Below are positions 2,994 to 26,071 of a stretch of DNA of 64,000 bases, one piece after another. Both the position numbers and the translations under genes were made by a program. Under the pieces are notes generated by a model. It did no database searches, was not told the DNA's origin, and was given only the letters and a program-made list of their open reading frames with translations. Origin of the DNA: Candidatus Magasanikiibacteriota bacterium (lineage in GTDB: Bacteria; Patescibacteriota; Patescibacteriia; Magasanikbacterales; GWA2-37-8); the NCBI GenBank assembly GCA_017991415.1, contig JAGOQR010000002.1, positions 17,026 to 81,025 of the forward strand, in the 5' to 3' direction. Within the stretch, counting starts at the first letter, position 1. The number at the start of each line of letters is the position of its first letter.

Positions 2994-4334
2994 TTATCTT
3001 AAGGTAGTGGTTGGTTTTGGAACTATTACTGGAGTGGTTGATACATTTATTTTTATAGTATTTGATGTAGTTACTCCAACACTAAGGCTACTACTAACAG
3101 GGGTAGTTGTAACAAAAATACTAGTAGAAGCAGTAAGTGGAGCATCTGCCGCAACTGCAACTACTGGCAAGATGCCTTGCACTGCCTTTAATGTATCGTC
3201 AGTAATTTTTTCAACTTGAGTACTCACTGCATTAGCTTCTTTTATTTTTCCAACAGCTAGGGAAAGATTATCTTGAGACAATAATATCTGCCCTTCACTT
3301 ACCGTTTCTCCCGTTTTAACATTAAACTGCTGGGCTGTGTTTACAGCTGCCTGGGTTTGTTTGGAAGTCTCTTCTATTTTATCGGATAATTCTTGTGTAT
3401 TATTGGATGTAGATGAATTTTTAATATCTTGAACAATAGCAGCATTTACTTCTGTTTTAACTATACCTACAGCTTTGTTTACTTCCACCATACTTTGCTT
3501 GGACTCGGCCGCATCTGTTACCGCTGATTGAAGCTGCTGGTTAATGGCTGCCTTAACCTCATCTTTTGATACACTCACATCTCCTTGTAAATGCTTCTCT
3601 ACCATAACTTCTACAGCTTTTACCGCTGTTTCTTTTGCTATATCTTTTACTTGAGAAACTTGAGTTGATAAATCGCCTGTACTTGCAACATCGTTGATAA
3701 GTAAATTAACTTTAACTTCTTTTAAAACTTTTTGTATATCCTGAGTAGTTTGATTAATATTTTTTGCAGCCTCTCCAGTTGAACCGTTAGTTGTTTTTAT
3801 TTCTTCTAATTTATTACTTACGCTATTTAATTCTTGTTTTAAATCATTAACTGTTTTGGAAACAATTTCAATTTTTGAAGGATCGTTCTGAGAAACAATA
3901 CTTTTTATTTCTACAGCTCTTCTTTTAGCAAATTCACCGTGCAGACTAGCGGCCTCATTTTTATTGCCAACAACCTCAGCACTTACTGACTGAAATGTTT
4001 CAGTTGCGCGCTTTGCAGAATAAAGCCATTCGCCAGGTAATGATTCGTAAGAAGCACTTACAGTTGCAACCCAACTTCCAACACCCATAGCCAGGATAAG
4101 GATTATCGCTGTCATTGGTTTGATAACTCTATATACCAATGTTTGTGGCAAGAAAATTGAAGTTGCTTGCCAAAAATTATCGACATTAAACTTAATTCGA
4201 TTATTATTTTTTGTAGAAACAGTATTTCTAATCTGAGACAACAAAAGCTCTCGGTTATTTTTTAACCATTCTTCACTCGGTCCAGTATCAGCATGCTTCA
4301 AGGATTTCAATTGTCTGATTATTTCTTTAGACAT
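2994..4334 (-). CDS. membrane-anchored anti-sigma-factor-like protein (short cytoplasmic N-domain, one TM helix, long coiled-coil ectodomain, S/T/P/V-rich C-terminal tail)
   Basis: Immediately downstream of and co-oriented with the ECF sigma gene. One hydrophobic helix (AIILILAMGVGSWVATV) about 75 aa from the N-terminus. Lys/Glu/Gln-rich heptad-like ectodomain. Low-complexity T/P/S/V tail. Confidence 0.4.
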   Translation of the reverse strand: MSKEIIRQLKSLKHADTGPSEEWLKNNRELLLSQIRNTVSTKNNNRIKFNVDNFWQATSIFLPQTLVYRVIKPMTAIILILAMGVGSWVATVSASYESLPGEWLYSAKRATETFQSVSAEVVGNKNEAASLHGEFAKRRAVEIKSIVSQNDPSKIEIVSKTVNDLKQELNSVSNKLEEIKTTNGSTGEAAKNINQTTQDIQKVLKEVKVNLLINDVASTGDLSTQVSQVKDIAKETAVKAVEVMVEKHLQGDVSVSKDEVKAAINQQLQSAVTDAAESKQSMVEVNKAVGIVKTEVNAAIVQDIKNSSTSNNTQELSDKIEETSKQTQAAVNTAQQFNVKTGETVSEGQILLSQDNLSLAVGKIKEANAVSTQVEKITDDTLKAVQGILPVVAVAADAPLTASTSIFVTTTPVSSSLSVGVTTSNTIKINVSTTPVIVPKPTTTLR

Positions 4335-4364
4335 AACGTATTAACTATACCTTTACCCGATTTT

Positions 4365-4937
4365 TTATACTTTATTTTCTAACAATTCTTTTAATTTATG
4401 TAAGGCTCTATGCAATGTTACTCGTATTGATACTCGGCCCTTTCCAGTTATCTCGGCAATCTCACTCACTTCTAATTCATCGACATATCTTAGAGTAACA
4501 ATTTCTCGATATTCTTGTTTTAAATTTTTTAAAGCTTTAATGATTTTTTGAACTTCAATTTTTTCTCCTATTTTTTCTTCGAAGCCAATCACCCAACTTT
4601 CTTTACCTTGTATATTCTCGCCCCCATCATCATCGATGGAAAAAACTTCTTTATGACTTGTTTTCGAACGATACAAGTCAATAACAGAGTTGCGCGCTAA
4701 TTTATATAAAAGACCGCTAAAACTTTCTATACTTTTTTTCTCATTTATATATCGCCATGCTTTCAAGAACACTTCAGAAGTAATATCTTCGGCCTCTTCA
4801 CGATTTGCAACTTTAAAAAAAACAAAGCTATAGATTCGTCTAGCATAAATATCATATAGCTGAGCAAAAGCTTCTGGATCCTTTTTGGTGTGAAGCTTAA
4901 AGAGGAGGATTTTTTCAGAGATTTTATTTCTAGACAT
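4365..4937 (-). CDS. ECF-type RNA polymerase sigma factor (sigma-70 family regions 2 and 4)
   Basis: Region-2-like EAFAQLYDIYARRIYSFVFFKVANREEAEDITSEVFLKAW and region-4 HTH LRYVDELEVSEIAEITGKGRVSIRVTLHRALHKLKE. The track ORF begins at a TTG (5006) with 23 hydrophobic non-sigma residues, so the ATG at 4937 (MSRNKISEK...) is preferred. Confidence 0.75.
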   Translation of the reverse strand: MSRNKISEKILLFKLHTKKDPEAFAQLYDIYARRIYSFVFFKVANREEAEDITSEVFLKAWRYINEKKSIESFSGLLYKLARNSVIDLYRSKTSHKEVFSIDDDGGENIQGKESWVIGFEEKIGEKIEVQKIIKALKNLKQEYREIVTLRYVDELEVSEIAEITGKGRVSIRVTLHRALHKLKELLENKV

Positions 4938-5123
4938 TATAGTAGACGTAGAAATAAGAATTATGTTACAGTTTTCGAAAATCACATTAATTTTCAACCA
5001 TTTCAATGGTTAACATGTTAGCAAAATAAAGGGCAGAAGTCAAATAGAGACCATAGAATTTAAAATGATTTTTGATGCTTCAAATTAATGCTCAGCTGCA
5101 AAAAAAGAAATTAAATTTTGTAT

Positions 5124-8753: not shown

Positions 8754-8820
8754 ATATAAAAGTAAATTTAAAAAATGATAATATAATTATAACACACTTT
8801 AATAAAATAACCTCTTACGC

Positions 8821-8850
8821 TTGACAAAATTGCTATTTTATGGTTAAAAT
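8821..8850 (+). promoter_or_regulatory. sigma-70-like promoter TTGACA-N18-TAAAAT carrying the extended motif ATTTTATGGTTAAAAT
   Basis: ttgaca at 8821-8826 and taaaat at 8845-8850. Points toward the GC-rich lipoprotein gene. Confidence 0.35.
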
Positions 8851-8874
8851 ACTGAGTTCTTTTAATGAATTCTT

Positions 8875-8928
8875 AGAACTAGCAAGAATTTTGAGCACTA
8901 CACATTGCCCAAAATTCTCGCTAGTTCT
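8875..8928. repeat. long hairpin (18-bp arms agaactagcaagaatttt / aaaattctcgctagttct, one mismatch) with loop ...cactacacattgccc, at the left edge of GC-rich island 1
   Basis: Inverted repeat read directly. The loop shares the 9-mer acacattgc with the H3 hairpin loop at 25493-25554. Confidence 0.4.
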
Positions 8929-8987
8929 GGCAGCCTCGCCCGATATCCGGGAAAGGTTTTGTCTCCTACCGAGAGAGTGAGGATCAC

Positions 8988-9587
8988 ATGCGTACCACGC
9001 TCACGATCACGACGACCATGGCACTGCTGATGCTCATCCTGGGCTGCAGCTCCACCAACGTCAAGCGCGCAACCACCGCCAAGTCGGCCAAGGTGACCGC
9101 CACGACGAAGACGGAGTCCAAGGAGGCGAGGAAGAAGTCGAGCGACAAGAGCGCCGAGGTCAAGAAGAAGTCGAGCAGCAGCGGCACGGTCATCGGCTAC
9201 TCGACGAAGTCGGACTACATCGTGCGGGTCTCGGGACAGAAGAACCCCGAGGTCATCCAGTTCTTGCGGCGGCTGGAGAACCAGTGCAGCTGCCCCGACG
9301 ACCTGATCACCCAGCGCATCAAGCCCACGAAGACGACTGGCAACGACGTCAGTGCGTTCAAGCTGTCGCTCTCGCCAGGAATGGGGGCGCACATCGTCTT
9401 CCAGGTGATGGTCGACGACCCCAACAACAGCGAGAACAGGGTCTACCTAAGTGAGCAAGACTGGCCGTCAATCACAGCGTTTGACGGCACCATCGACTCC
9501 CTGCGAGAAGTCGGCGTGTGGAGGAGTGGCTCCTACGGCGGCAAGGGGCGGGGGCTGTTCAAGATCGAGGAGCTCATCGTCGAGTAG
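8988..9587 (+). CDS. lipoprotein of foreign (high-GC) origin, function unknown
   Basis: Lipobox LILGC after a hydrophobic signal peptide. Almost every codon ends in G or C (roughly 60% GC by eye) against a roughly 35% GC host. SD-like GAGG 7 nt upstream. Confidence 0.55.
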   Translation: MRTTLTITTTMALLMLILGCSSTNVKRATTAKSAKVTATTKTESKEARKKSSDKSAEVKKKSSSSGTVIGYSTKSDYIVRVSGQKNPEVIQFLRRLENQCSCPDDLITQRIKPTKTTGNDVSAFKLSLSPGMGAHIVFQVMVDDPNNSENRVYLSEQDWPSITAFDGTIDSLREVGVWRSGSYGGKGRGLFKIEELIVE

Positions 9588-9646
9588 AAGCGCGTGCTTC
9601 TGCAGGATGCCAGGAAGGGCAAGGACGCGGAGCCTTGTCCCGTGTT

Positions 9647-9682
9647 GTAACTATAATTTGTATATATACAAATTATAGTTAC
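9647..9682. repeat. 36-bp perfect palindrome gtaactataatttgtata|tatacaaattatagttac at the right edge of GC-rich island 1
   Basis: Perfect inverted repeat with no spacer. Half-site AATTTGTATA resembles the 5124-5244 palindromes. Confidence 0.5.
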
Positions 9683-9704
9683 CGGGATAAGGATACTAAA
9701 ATTT

Positions 9705-9737
9705 AAAACAGCCCCGATACTATCGGGGCTGTTTTAT
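9705..9737. terminator. bidirectional rho-independent terminator (aaaacagccccgata-c-tatcggggctgtttt)
   Basis: Perfect GC-rich stem with an A-run on one side and a T-run on the other. Lies between the lipoprotein gene (+) and the tRNA genes (-). Confidence 0.6.
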
Positions 9738-9741
9738 TATG

Positions 9742-9815
9742 TAGGCGCTTAGGGATTCGAACCCTAGACCTCCTCGGTGTAAACGAGGCGCTCTAACCAA
9801 CTGAGCTAAACGCCC
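9742..9815 (-). tRNA. tRNA-Val (anticodon TAC)
   Basis: Minus-strand cloverleaf GGGCGTT-TA-GCTCAGTTGGTTAGAGC-G-CCTCG-TTTACAC-CGAGG-AGGTC-TAGGGTTCGAATCCCTA-AGCGCCT-A. Anticodon loop TT-TAC-AC. Confidence 0.7.
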
Positions 9816-9878
9816 GATTTATCGATATAATCCACAAAGCAGTTGTCTTAAATTGCTTATTTAAGAAAATTACTTTCG

Positions 9879-9951
9879 TGGGTCGGCTGGGGATCGAACC
9901 CAGGACCACTGCCTTAAAAGGGCATTGCTCTACCAGCTGAGCTACCGACCC
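9879..9951 (-). tRNA. tRNA-Lys (anticodon TTT)
   Basis: Minus-strand cloverleaf GGGTCGG-TA-GCTCAGCTGGTAGAGC...CTTTTAA...CTGGGTTCGATCCCCAG-CCGACCC-A. Perfect 7-bp acceptor stem. Confidence 0.7.
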
Positions 9952-24664: not shown

Positions 24665-24690
24665 TTGCCAAGCAAATTTTATGGTAAAAA
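24665..24690 (+). promoter_or_regulatory. third copy of the ATTTTATGG(T)TAAAAT promoter-like motif (TTGCCA-N15-TAAAAA), immediately left of hairpin H2
   Basis: aaattttatggtaaaaat matches the 8835-8850 motif with one deleted base. The -35 and spacing are poor. Confidence 0.2.
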
Positions 24691-24696
24691 TTAAAC

Positions 24697-24758
24697 AAAA
24701 AGACCGCCTGCTCATTATTTTCCACACTATGAAAAATAATGAGCATAGAGGCGGTCTT
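24697..24758 (-). terminator. hairpin H2 (cassette-associated): aaaagaccgcctgctcattatttt / aaaataatgagc-ATAG-aggcggtctt, loop ccacactatg; acts as a rho-independent terminator for the minus-strand GC-rich gene
   Basis: About 22-bp stem with a 4-nt bulge. A run of T follows on the minus strand. Homologous to H3. Confidence 0.55.
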
Positions 24759-24827
24759 CTGGTTGAATCCGCATATGCCCCCTGTGCCAGGAAGGAAGCA
24801 AGGCGAATGAGTATAGGAGGGCGATGG

Positions 24828-25220
24828 TCAGTTCGCCCAGGAGAACGACTCGAACGGAAGCGCCGAAGCCATGACTCGCACCTGCGGAGCCTCACCGGTG
24901 CTCCGCGGCTCGATCCAGTCACGGCTGCGACGCACCTTCTTGCGCGTCGGCCCCACCACTGCAGCCATCGGAATCTTCTTGAAGATCTCGATCACGCCGG
25001 TGGGCTTCTCCCCCTTGCAGATCTTGTTGATCCGCATCCAGAGCGGCTCGGTCAGCAGCTCCGACTTGTCGAACGCGCAGACCGTGCCAGAACCACCTGC
25101 ATCATGCCTCACGTGCGGACGAGGCCGCTCGCTCGTGGCGAGCGGTCCCTTGACGTAGCGGCAGACCGTCCCATCGGGACGCTTCTGAACCAACACGAAC
25201 ACAAACAGTTGCTTGCTCAT
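24828..25220 (-). CDS. small protein (130 aa) of foreign high-GC origin, function unknown
   Basis: ATG at 25220 with GAGAGG 7 nt upstream (MSKQLFVFVLVQKRPDGTV...). Third codon positions are almost all G/C. The opposite-strand ORF is Arg-rich antisense noise. Confidence 0.5.
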   Translation of the reverse strand: MSKQLFVFVLVQKRPDGTVCRYVKGPLATSERPRPHVRHDAGGSGTVCAFDKSELLTEPLWMRINKICKGEKPTGVIEIFKKIPMAAVVGPTRKKVRRSRDWIEPRSTGEAPQVRVMASALPFESFSWAN

Positions 25221-25452
25221 CGGAACGCACCTCTCATGATTGCCGAGAAAAGAAACCTCACATTTTGGCTGCGAAAAGCTCAGGTAGAGCATCTTGGAAA
25301 CAGTCACCCCCCGTGACTGCTCCTACTTTTCACATGAAAATGCCAAACTGCAAACTGTATACTTAATGTAAAAATATACACTATGCAAGTTAGCATTATT
25401 CAAGTAAAGATAGGCCAAACGTAAATAACAAAAAAATTAAAAGAACTACAAG

Positions 25453-25481
25453 ATTATAGCCATAAAATACTCAAATGTCAA
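25453..25481 (-). promoter_or_regulatory. perfect consensus sigma-70 promoter TTGACA-N17-TATAAT on the minus strand, carrying ATTTTATGGCTATAAT
   Basis: tgtcaa at 25476-25481 and attata at 25453-25458 (plus coordinates), spacer exactly 17. Directed at the GC-rich gene starting at 25220. Confidence 0.5.
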
Positions 25482-25492
25482 TATAAATTAAA

Positions 25493-25554
25493 AAAAGACC
25501 GCCTGTTTATTATTTTCACACATTGCATAAAAACAATAAACATAAGGCGGCCTT
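25493..25554 (-). terminator. hairpin H3 (cassette-associated): aaaaagaccgcctgtttattatttt / aaaacaataaac-ATA-aggcggcctt, loop cacacattgcat; terminator of the second GC-rich gene
   Basis: Homologous to H2, with compensatory stem changes (gctc/gagc versus gttt/aaac) and the same bulge position. A T-run follows on the minus strand. Confidence 0.55.
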
Positions 25555-25589
25555 CTTCGTGCGCCGCGGACACCCTGCTCCCCGAGGAG

Positions 25590-25841
25590 CTAGAGTGCCG
25601 AAGGACGGAGATCGCTGAAGTCGCAGATCAGCGTCTGCGCACCAGGGAACAGAGGAACATGACCACGGTGTGGTGAGACGTTGGCATCTCGCATCAGTTT
25701 GATGAAGGCCGAGAGGTTCGCATGTCGATCTGGAGTGGCGACAGGCACCTTTTCGAACGGAAAGAAGGCTTGGAACACCTCCACATCGCCATCCTGACGA
25801 CCAACCTTCACGATACAGTGAACTCGCAGAGTCTTCTTCAT
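25590..25841 (-). CDS. small protein (83 aa) in GC-rich island 3, function unknown
   Basis: ATG at 25841 (MKKTLRVHCIVKVGRQDGDVEV...); an alternative GTG start lies at 25883. GC-rich codon third positions. Weak N-terminal resemblance to the 24828..25220 product. Confidence 0.35.
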   Translation of the reverse strand: MKKTLRVHCIVKVGRQDGDVEVFQAFFPFEKVPVATPDRHANLSAFIKLMRDANVSPHRGHVPLFPGAQTLICDFSDLRPSAL

Positions 25842-26042
25842 AGGAGGCCTTGGAAACCCTTGAGAGAACGTTGCACAACGCACAGAAGTCCTGAATGGAA
25901 ACCATACAATGGCTACGAAAAGTCGCTTATGCGACCTCTCACTTCTGTCTTATAGGCATTGCTAATTTGCATACTCCTCACCTCGTACAGAGATGGTAAA
26001 TATGCAAATTAACAAACGCGATTATTTGAAAGAACTTGCAGC

Positions 26043-26071
26043 AGTATACACACAAAAAACACGTCTGTCAA
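26043..26071 (-). promoter_or_regulatory. sigma-70-like promoter TTGACA-N17-TATACT on the minus strand, upstream of the island-3 gene
   Basis: tgtcaa at 26066-26071 and agtata at 26043-26048 (plus coordinates), spacer 17. Confidence 0.4.

Follow-up and report, generated by a model that had tools for sequence, protein, structure and literature searches.

The closest described counterparts of the element considered here are phage morons, tRNA-associated islets, integron cassettes, mRNA end-stabilising structures and recombining lipoprotein loci. The element is a lipoprotein gene cassette rich in guanine plus cytosine (GC), at positions 8821-9736 of a 64-kb stretch of DNA (contig JAGOQR010000002.1; hereafter the window) from one metagenome-assembled genome (MAG) of Candidatus Magasanikbacteria, in the candidate phyla radiation (CPR). 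It lies in the slot between an amino-acid permease gene and a tRNA-Val gene. It resembles each of the known systems in part, and in our analysis none of these concepts covers the whole combination.

A phage moron is a single gene with its own σ70 promoter and intrinsic terminator, a deviant composition and a place in a variably filled intergenic slot. The cassette likewise has its own promoter, a single open reading frame (ORF), its own terminator and a deviant composition. However, location in a prophage is part of the definition of a moron, and the ORFs in the 1-32 kb part of the window encode core functions; the cassette sits in a CPR core chromosome. Its composition also persists across species and is not a mark of recent arrival, and beyond the moron plan it has a conserved 5′ box and a long stem-loop on the 5′ and on the 3′ side.

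Islets inserted at tRNA genes by tyrosine integrases are similar in their closeness to a tRNA gene, their variable slot and their odd composition, and in one relative (L008, apparently also L011) the end of the tRNA gene is repeated. In the window, however, no integrase, transposase or reverse transcriptase was found among the ORFs of 1-32 kb (by Pfam annotation of the large ORFs), and the 20-mer at the 3′ end of tRNA-Val is present in a single copy with up to 3 mismatches allowed, so that an att repeat is lacking. Between the cassette and the tRNA lies a terminator, the family is inherited in place, and relatives keep the gene with undecayed GC. An integrase-mediated, tRNA-targeted island was rejected on these grounds.

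Integron cassettes are small single-ORF units, sometimes in tandem, with a long imperfect hairpin (attC) at the end and diverse cargo, mostly of unknown function, which the present cassette also recalls. Unlike them, each unit here has its own promoter, and its hairpins lack conserved R and L core boxes: the ends, GTAAC/GTTAC, vary to GTACC, GTAGC and GTGCC, and they covary. The 32 kb examined yielded no IntI-like integrase, nor was an attI identified, so an integron cassette was rejected. The same applies to the target of a diversity-generating retroelement. There is no template-like second copy of any GC-rich island sequence in the 64 kb and no reverse transcriptase domain in 1-32 kb, and divergence spans the whole mature domain of the protein. 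Readings of the hairpins as attC, retroelement or IS200/IS605 structures fail as well, since the cores are not conserved, the ends are dissimilar, and neither a template repeat nor an enzyme gene was found in these same regions.

At the level of RNA, the cassette can be compared with mRNA end-stabilisers such as the ompA 5′ stem-loop, the Bacillus 5′ stabilisers, the 3′ retroregulator of the Bacillus thuringiensis cry gene and the RNase III sites of T7. It too has stable stem-loops near the 5′ end and before the terminator of an envelope-protein message, and these covary; a similar function is what we infer for them. We know of no description of such stem-loops in an AT-rich genome where the message also has a conserved 5′ box and a body rich in GC and poor in U. 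Finally, hypervariable lipoprotein loci of the Borrelia ospC type have divergent alleles between near-identical flanks with sharp recombination boundaries, as is the case here (38% identity between alleles), but the protein is unrelated, the host is a CPR bacterium, and the compositional contrast is extreme.

The reading we favour, with a probability of about 0.6, is that 8821-9736 is a self-contained single-gene unit and a long-standing resident of the variable permease/tRNA-Val slot in Candidatus Magasanikbacteria. At the same probability, its extreme G/C composition would be an old, maintained property of the lipoprotein family and of its sister cassettes, and no fading trace of a recent transfer. 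What carries this reading was taken from sequence: the layout of the unit, the lipoprotein product, two conserved structures, the persistence of G/C and the exchange of alleles. Deviant GC is the standard signal for recent horizontal transfer, and for this family the “foreign, unameliorated” interpretation fails: the family persists in place with a third-codon-position GC (GC3) of about 0.9 in genomes of GC3 about 0.3, despite synonymous sites that are fully randomised between distant members.

Layout of the cassette and its lipoprotein product

The window has a mean GC of about 0.37, with three short outliers at 8929-9646 (0.61), about 24760-25320 (0.60) and about 25557-25960 (0.54). The initial annotation had described the first as a foreign island of roughly 60% GC that encodes a 199-aa lipoprotein with almost exclusively G/C-ending codons; apart from the origin, the measurements bear this out. 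The precursor gene lies at 8988-9587 on the plus strand, and its GC at the three codon positions is 0.47/0.46/0.92, compared with 0.47/0.37/0.28 in the adjacent permease and a GC3 of about 0.28 in its neighbours. Codon choice is approximately the mirror image of that of the host. In the lipoprotein gene and the gene of the second island combined, AAG:AAA is 29:0 and ATC:ATT is 17:1, versus 13:63 and 9:75 in three host genes. The message body is U-poor, with 14% T on the coding strand. The untranslated leader (GC 0.58) and trailer (0.64) of the cassette are also GC-rich, and leaders and trailers range from 0.48 to 0.76; the bias is thus regional and not purely one of codons.

Transcription would start from a strong σ70-type promoter, TTGACA-N18-TAAAAT, at 8821-8850 (+), which had been recognised at the outset. 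It matches the consensus at 11 of 12 positions and is kept in the orthologue from a sister lineage (L001). The first bases of the transcript would be the conserved box AGTTCTTTTAA at 8855-8865 (+), 4 nt past the -10 element. Next comes the long hairpin of the initial annotation at 8875-8928 (+), an inverted repeat (8875-8897/8906-8928) with 23-nt arms that are 91% complementary and a predicted folding energy of -28.2 kcal/mol (z = -6.6). Compensatory changes were found at 10 of its 23 pairs across 6 species that have this stem-loop in the permease slot. The stem-loop gives way to the GC-rich leader (8929-8987, +), which has a Shine-Dalgarno sequence, GAGGA, at 8979-8983 as its predicted ribosome-binding site and is homologous in L001, L010, L011 and L066.

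At the other end, the GC-rich trailer (9588-9632, +), a long conserved 3′ stem-loop and a terminator would close the unit. The 3′ stem-loop, at 9633-9692 (+), is a compound structure (-35.6 kcal/mol, z = -5.9) made of a GC base (CCTTGTCCCG/CGGGATAAGG), an internal loop on the 5′ side and an AT-rich upper stem. The perfect 36-bp palindrome at 9647-9682 (18+18 nt), previously taken as the right junction of an island, is this upper stem. Compensatory changes occur at 10 of 20 pairs across 9 sequences, in which GUA.CUAU...AUAG.UACCGGGA is invariant. It is followed, as had been noted, by a bidirectional intrinsic terminator (9704-9736; -24 kcal/mol, z = -9.3; T runs on both strands), common to the cassette and the convergent tRNA operon, and by two tRNA genes, tRNA-Val(TAC) at 9741-9815 (-) and tRNA-Lys(TTT) at 9878-9951 (-). 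In a scan with Rfam 15 only the tRNAs matched, with no family reaching its gathering score for the cassette elements; permissive scans gave only sub-threshold matches to generic hairpins and terminators (microRNA precursors, leaders and small RNAs).

The product, identical to NCBI protein KBC69_02550, is a lipoprotein precursor predicted to be exposed on the cell surface. It has the N-terminal basic residue, hydrophobic stretch and lipobox cysteine of a type II signal peptide, MRTTLTITTTMALLMLILG followed by C, with lipidation expected at Cys20 (TGC, 9045-9047). The cysteine is kept in 5/6 aligned homologues (L065 has no Cys there), and matches to lipoprotein profiles are weak and confined to the N-terminus. 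The cysteine is followed by a disordered tether rich in Lys, Ser and Thr (9048-9182, +) and a 134-aa β-sandwich domain (9183-9584, +). With a 6-sequence alignment, AlphaFold2 models this mature domain as all-β with a predicted local distance difference test score (pLDDT) of 77.6 and a predicted TM-score (pTM) of 0.76; an alignment of only 2 sequences gives a pLDDT of 33. A Foldseek search of the PDB with the domain model returned no match at E < 1e-3, only weak generic β-sandwiches, and a sequence search of the PDB gave no match. Scans of the three island proteins with Pfam, PHROGs, NCBIfam and PADLOC gave only N-terminal, lipoprotein-like noise.

The lipoprotein domain is under purifying selection: against the sister-lineage orthologue, dN/dS is 0.25 and the coding-region indels are all multiples of three. 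The largest, of 99 nt, falls in the tether after the lipobox, where the window has two 21-nt direct copies, 33 nt apart and 86% identical (9123-9176, +). The orthologue is shorter by exactly 99 nt (33 aa) at this repeat region, which suggests that the length of the tether varies through gain and loss of repeats.

An assembly chimera, or a structured non-coding RNA mistaken for a protein gene, was rejected as very improbable. GC-rich stretches in AT-rich genomes are often RNA genes, and the island has long ORFs in several frames. However, several sequencing runs and studies gave these junctions independently, with three independent assemblies agreeing on one structure. L003 is identical to the window, and in L001 and L002, which represent the sister lineage, everything matches from the permease start through promoter, hairpin, gene, palindrome and terminator to tRNA-Val. 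A non-coding RNA is further at odds with the codon-position GC signal, the dN/dS value, the in-frame indels, the confident fold prediction and the lack of an Rfam match in the scans above.

Long antisense or out-of-frame ORFs (129-211 aa) also occur inside the GC-rich segments, at 8898-9392 (-), 24681-25316 (+) and 25516-25905 (-). They were rejected as artefacts of stop-codon-poor sequence, with GC peaking at the wrong codon positions.

The two stem-loops probably act on the RNA, as end-protecting or processing structures, and the box would serve as a 5′-end or operator signal. Selection on the RNA, for instance for stability or insulation, may be what keeps the message body GC-rich and U-poor.

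The permease/tRNA-Val slot and the age of the GC-richness

A word-indexed search of 5.8 billion proteins recovered only the lipoprotein itself and its sister orthologue, and five homologous clusters, plus two spurious repeat proteins, came out of an exhaustive HMMER search of 1.84 billion representatives. A best match in high-GC taxa had been named as what would favour horizontal transfer; homologues were found only in Magasanikbacteria, with none outside this group among the 1.84 billion representatives. A tblastn search of phage and plasmid collections with the proteins of islands 2 and 3 and the lipoprotein domain gave no match. The same permease gene, in divergent orientation, is next to or close to all three homologues that were looked up (P0007, P0008 and P0010), and L010 and L011 carry family members in the permease/tRNA-Val slot. 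In seven lineages the gene has a GC3 of 0.68-0.92, with neighbours at 0.28-0.39, and over the aligned codons of the close pair GC3 is 0.90 in the orthologue (L001) and 0.92 in the window.

Between distant members, fourfold-degenerate sites at conserved residues have, for example, identities of 0.41 and 0.37 where composition alone predicts 0.35 and 0.35, from 10-22 sites per pair. Since this identity is at the level of chance and GC3 is still high, the synonymous sites have fully turned over with the preference for G/C kept. In the close pair, the pooled synonymous difference of the three islands is about 0.24 per site, versus 0.54 in the adjacent permease, the latter from a small sample of 33 codons. 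On this comparison the islands have diverged less, where foreign DNA that decays under AT-biased mutation should have diverged more.

These results bear on the view of the initial annotation that the segment came recently from a high-GC donor. In that account, a mobile element with a common promoter-hairpin junction inserted the DNA at tRNA-Val, and its composition has not yet ameliorated. In its favour are codon usage that is the inverse of the host's, proteins that are orphans, and a slot of varying content that is empty in one relative. However, GC-rich homologues sit in place in seven low-GC lineages, equally high in GC and with randomised synonymous sites, which is the very situation that had been named as incompatible with the proposal, and because of this it fails. 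The lack of homologues elsewhere in the collections searched, and of an integrase or att repeat in the window, points the same way. In L010 and L011, divergence of the GC-rich leader and signal-peptide region keeps pace with that of the AT-rich flanks, and the supposed common junction mixes 5′ and 3′ elements, as described below. From the sequence evidence the recent-transfer account is largely refuted, and we consider it unlikely.

The slot itself nevertheless has a varied history. A permease scan of species-representative genomes yielded 56 loci (L007-L062, about 620 kb), and the permease/tRNA-Val slot is NEVERTHELESS variable across relatives. It had been asked whether the orthologous interval is empty in related genomes, and the answer is divided. 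One relative, L060, has an empty slot, with tRNA-Val and the permease 40 nt apart, and it is the sole empty one; others are differently filled; and in seven lineages the homologue is in place. L007, L009, L012, L037 and L044 have unrelated low-GC genes on the other strand, L008 a different GC-rich lipoprotein gene (GC3 0.85) and L056 a GC-rich gene for a non-lipoprotein (GC3 0.85), the last two on the same strand as in the window.

Signs of insertion at the tRNA, which favour a recent arrival, are seen in two of these loci. In L008 (4990-5170), the 3′ end of tRNA-Val (CGAATCCCTAAGCGCCTACA) is present as a 20-nt direct repeat around a GC-rich insert of about 130 nt, placed between tRNA-Val and the terminator of the cassette and without a match in Rfam. 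The arrangement resembles the scar of an att site or an integrated miniature element. L011 has what appears to be a similar, partial copy of the tRNA end.

Exchange of alleles and modules

The mature domain of the lipoprotein is hypervariable, and homologous recombination among Magasanikbacteria replaces its alleles as modules with sharp boundaries. In L010 and L011 the permeases are 93% identical over the first 188 residues and the flanks mostly 72-98% identical, and the conserved flank takes in the promoter and box, the 5′ hairpin, the GC-rich leader and the signal peptide. Starting just past the lipobox and up to the 3′ hairpin, identity falls to 20-60%, and the proteins are 38% identical.

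A second case comes from the locus of islands 2 and 3. Compared with window positions 24927-25720 and the sister-lineage locus L004, L006, from a third population (SRR28520274), is a clean mosaic of three segments. The first has the window allele of the island 3 gene (informative sites 14:0), the second the L004 allele of terminator, promoter, box and 5′ hairpin (0:24), and the third the window allele of the island 2 ribosome-binding site and gene (63:0). The breakpoints are near the boundaries of the cassette modules. The contrast between L010 and L011 and the mosaic of L006 together indicate that coding and control modules reassort by homologous recombination. Divergence of the permease and of the lipoprotein is only weakly and not significantly correlated (rho 0.44, p 0.10), which fits allele exchange and is no proof of it.

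Such replacement of alleles would be expected of a surface protein in contact with hosts or phages. The hypervariable lipoprotein marked by the cassette, on the surface of an uncultivated member of a symbiotic lineage, is a plausible factor in such contact.

Recombination also bears on the origin of the composition. The gene could be a resident whose GC-richness, not selected in the RNA or the protein, follows from GC-biased gene conversion at a hot spot of recombination, a serious alternative that we rate as having a small but real chance. Recombination-associated GC-biased conversion is established for bacteria, recombination is visible at these loci in the bounded allele replacements and the L006 mosaic, and the non-coding leader and trailer are raised in GC along with the third codon positions. 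However, alleles with only 20-60% identity yield little heteroduplex in the core when one replaces another, and a shift in GC3 from 0.28 to 0.92 is, to our knowledge, far above the effects of conversion reported for bacteria. The AT-rich promoter and hairpin modules recombine yet stay AT-rich, and because of this, conversion would still need strong selection to account for the pattern. If the composition is actively maintained, messages in reduced, AT-rich genomes would be under a constraint that has gone unrecognised, such as RNA stability, processing or insulation; otherwise it may mean that biased conversion is unusually strong here.

Sister cassettes and similar units in relatives

The other two GC-rich outliers of the window are also single-gene cassettes, both on the minus strand. 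I2 (24694-25481; dN/dS 0.60) has a promoter and box at 25481-25437, a 5′ hairpin at 25408-25329, a coding sequence (CDS) of 130 aa at 25220-24828 (GC3 0.81) and a U-tailed 3′ compound hairpin, its terminator, at 24764-24694. I3 (25491-26071) has a promoter and box at 26071-26026, a 5′ hairpin at 26019-25956, a CDS of 84 aa at 25844-25590 (GC3 0.59) and a U-tailed 3′ compound hairpin and terminator at 25558-25491. Together with the lipoprotein cassette, they have a common plan of promoter, box, long 5′ hairpin, GC-rich leader and CDS, and long 3′ hairpin. The 3′ stem-loops of all three have a GC base and an AT-rich upper stem, and the six hairpins of the cassettes fold at z between -5.5 and -9.3.

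The control regions are held together by a composite pattern. The island promoters have TTGACA-N17/18-TAnAxT in common, followed by a AGTTCTTT(T/C)AA box. TTGACA-N16-19-TAWAMT-N3-6-AGTTCTTT occurs exactly 3 times in the 64 kb (0 expected), at 8821 (+), 25481 (-) and 26071 (-), so that every GC-rich gene has one correctly oriented copy upstream of it. The box alone, AGTTCTTTYAA, is found 3 times where 0.26 are expected, each copy downstream of the promoter of a GC-rich gene.

The family resemblance among the control regions that had been proposed initially thus holds, through the promoter-plus-box pattern and the hairpins, and not through the features on which it had been based. A promoter motif and a hairpin are indeed physically present on the low-coordinate side of all three islands, but functionally this common left junction is wrong. 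It mixes the 5′ elements of the plus-strand lipoprotein gene with the 3′ terminators of minus-strand genes: the hairpins at 24694-24764 and 25491-25558 are the U-tailed terminators mentioned above, and the motif copy at 25460, on the minus strand, is part of the island 2 promoter. All three copies of the proposed motif, ATTTTATGG, do lie at islands, but 1.9 copies are expected by chance. The 9-mer ACACATTGC, said to be shared between hairpin loops, occurs twice in the window, and 20/100 shuffled sequences have at least two copies; it is not conserved in the orthologous hairpin loop, nor is the plus-strand copy of ATTTTATGG at 24676 conserved in the orthologue. Both were dismissed as chance occurrences.

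Similar islets abound in relatives. The 56 permease loci contain about 40 GC-rich segments (300-1000 nt, GC at least 0.15 above the locus mean), many of them just upstream of the permease gene or beside tRNAs, and GC-rich islets appear to be a general trait of the phylum. Most of the proteins that they encode have no Pfam match, and several have signal peptides or lipoboxes. Many islets have the promoter, a GTTCTTT(T)AA-like box, the hairpin, the GC-rich leader and ORF, the long 3′ hairpin and the terminator, and the same layout surrounds unrelated cargo in L008, L021, L025, L042, L056 and L065, the last with two tandem units. In the relatives’ loci, high GC follows 6 of 12 exact copies of the box, compared with 0-1 for control motifs or the upstream side. 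Cassettes adjoin tRNAs in L025 and L040.

In some of the more distant Magasanikbacteria loci, type III hammerhead-like elements stand in the position that the long 3′ hairpin has in the window cassettes, directly after GC-rich ORFs: L049:3770-3836 (30.9 bits) and L055:1138-1203 (41.8 bits), both full-length matches below the Rfam gathering score of 48.5 bits. Their core, CUGAUGAG...CGAAA, is intact, and L054 has the same core motif near 3561. That hammerhead-like elements fill this position is the chief reason, though an indirect one, to think that the 3′ elements function as RNA. A pattern search with the 3′ hairpin gave 20 matches in viral contigs, all attributable to chance and none with a hairpin or GC-rich neighbour, and three in metagenome contigs, of which L091 and L093 are copies of the L008 locus and the third is L092.

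The recurrence of the plan raises the possibility of an undescribed mobile gene-cassette system. Its units would be captured and exchanged, as DNA or RNA, through recognition or processing of the 5′ box and of the hairpins or ribozymes at the ends. It would account for one layout around non-homologous cargo at several loci and in tandem arrays (I3-I2 in the window; L065), for replacement of cargo within one slot, for the tRNA-adjacent cassettes and for the hammerhead-like elements at cassette ends. However, no recombinase, transposase or reverse transcriptase was found nearby (1-32 kb), no target duplications were found, and the hairpin sequences differ within one genome, which makes a single recognition protein unlikely. 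Ordinary homologous recombination in conserved flanks explains the exchanges seen, and a mobile system of this kind is decidedly unlikely.

The resident, single-gene unit that we favour is best described as an autonomous accessory-gene cassette, with a substantial chance that its layout and composition reflect something undescribed; searches of the literature turned up no account of the phenomenon. Tentatively, and as a possibility on which we would not rely, compositionally insulated cassettes may form a class of their own in Magasanikbacteria and perhaps in other CPR bacteria. Their G/C would be actively maintained over divergence at the species level by an undescribed mechanism or pressure, and the cassettes would be shuffled as modules between genomes, on a plan of common 5′ box, long 5′ hairpin, GC-rich, U-poor body and 3′ hairpin or hammerhead ribozyme. 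The box and hairpins held in common are defined features open to testing.

Several points weigh against a long-resident cassette with maintained composition. The roles given to the box and hairpins derive from conservation only, and selection that holds hundreds of synonymous sites at G/C would have to be strong, with a benefit that is conjectural. Both synonymous-site comparisons rest on few sites or codons. Island 3 is only moderately GC-biased, and a few of the islets encode ordinary enzymes (OMP decarboxylase, NUDIX) and resemble plain transfers. Slot turnover, tRNA adjacency and the att-like scars of L008 and L011 show that outside DNA does enter the slot. An unsampled GC-rich reservoir is conceivable as the source, though less likely than biased conversion as the cause.

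The core genes of 1-32 kb encode an extracytoplasmic function (ECF) sigma factor, a DUF11 protein, the permease, MurG, RpoD, DnaG, a MacB/HlyD transporter, a nucleotidyltransferase of the poly(A)-polymerase family (CCA-adding type), PilT, a DUF4230 protein, a sugar nucleotidyltransferase, glycosyltransferases and PGI. The ECF-type sigma factor gene adjoins a gene for a DUF5667 protein, at 2994-5006 (-), about 4 kb from the lipoprotein cassette. It is speculation that the DUF5667 protein is an anti-sigma-like partner, and no link has been established between this sigma factor and the cassette promoters, which look σ70-type.

Many contigs with Magasanikbacteria-type synteny are titled “uncultured Gammaproteobacteria” (L007, L009-L011, L013, L016 and others), one “Candidatus Udaeobacter” and one “archaeon” (L037 and L062). 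The permeases of these contigs are 49-76% identical among those tabulated, and the titles are probably taxonomic mislabels of deposited MAGs.

The 84-aa ORF of island 3 is apparently unannotated in the NCBI record, since only one protein, derived from Logan, matches it. It is conserved in two other populations, with a dN/dS of 0.25 over 37 codons. In island 2, the leader of about 225 nt (25221-25445, -) is far better conserved between lineages than the CDS, whose protein is 74% identical. This leader contains the long hairpin at 25408-25329 and a GC hairpin, GCAGTCACGGGGGGTGACTG, and may be a regulatory RNA element.

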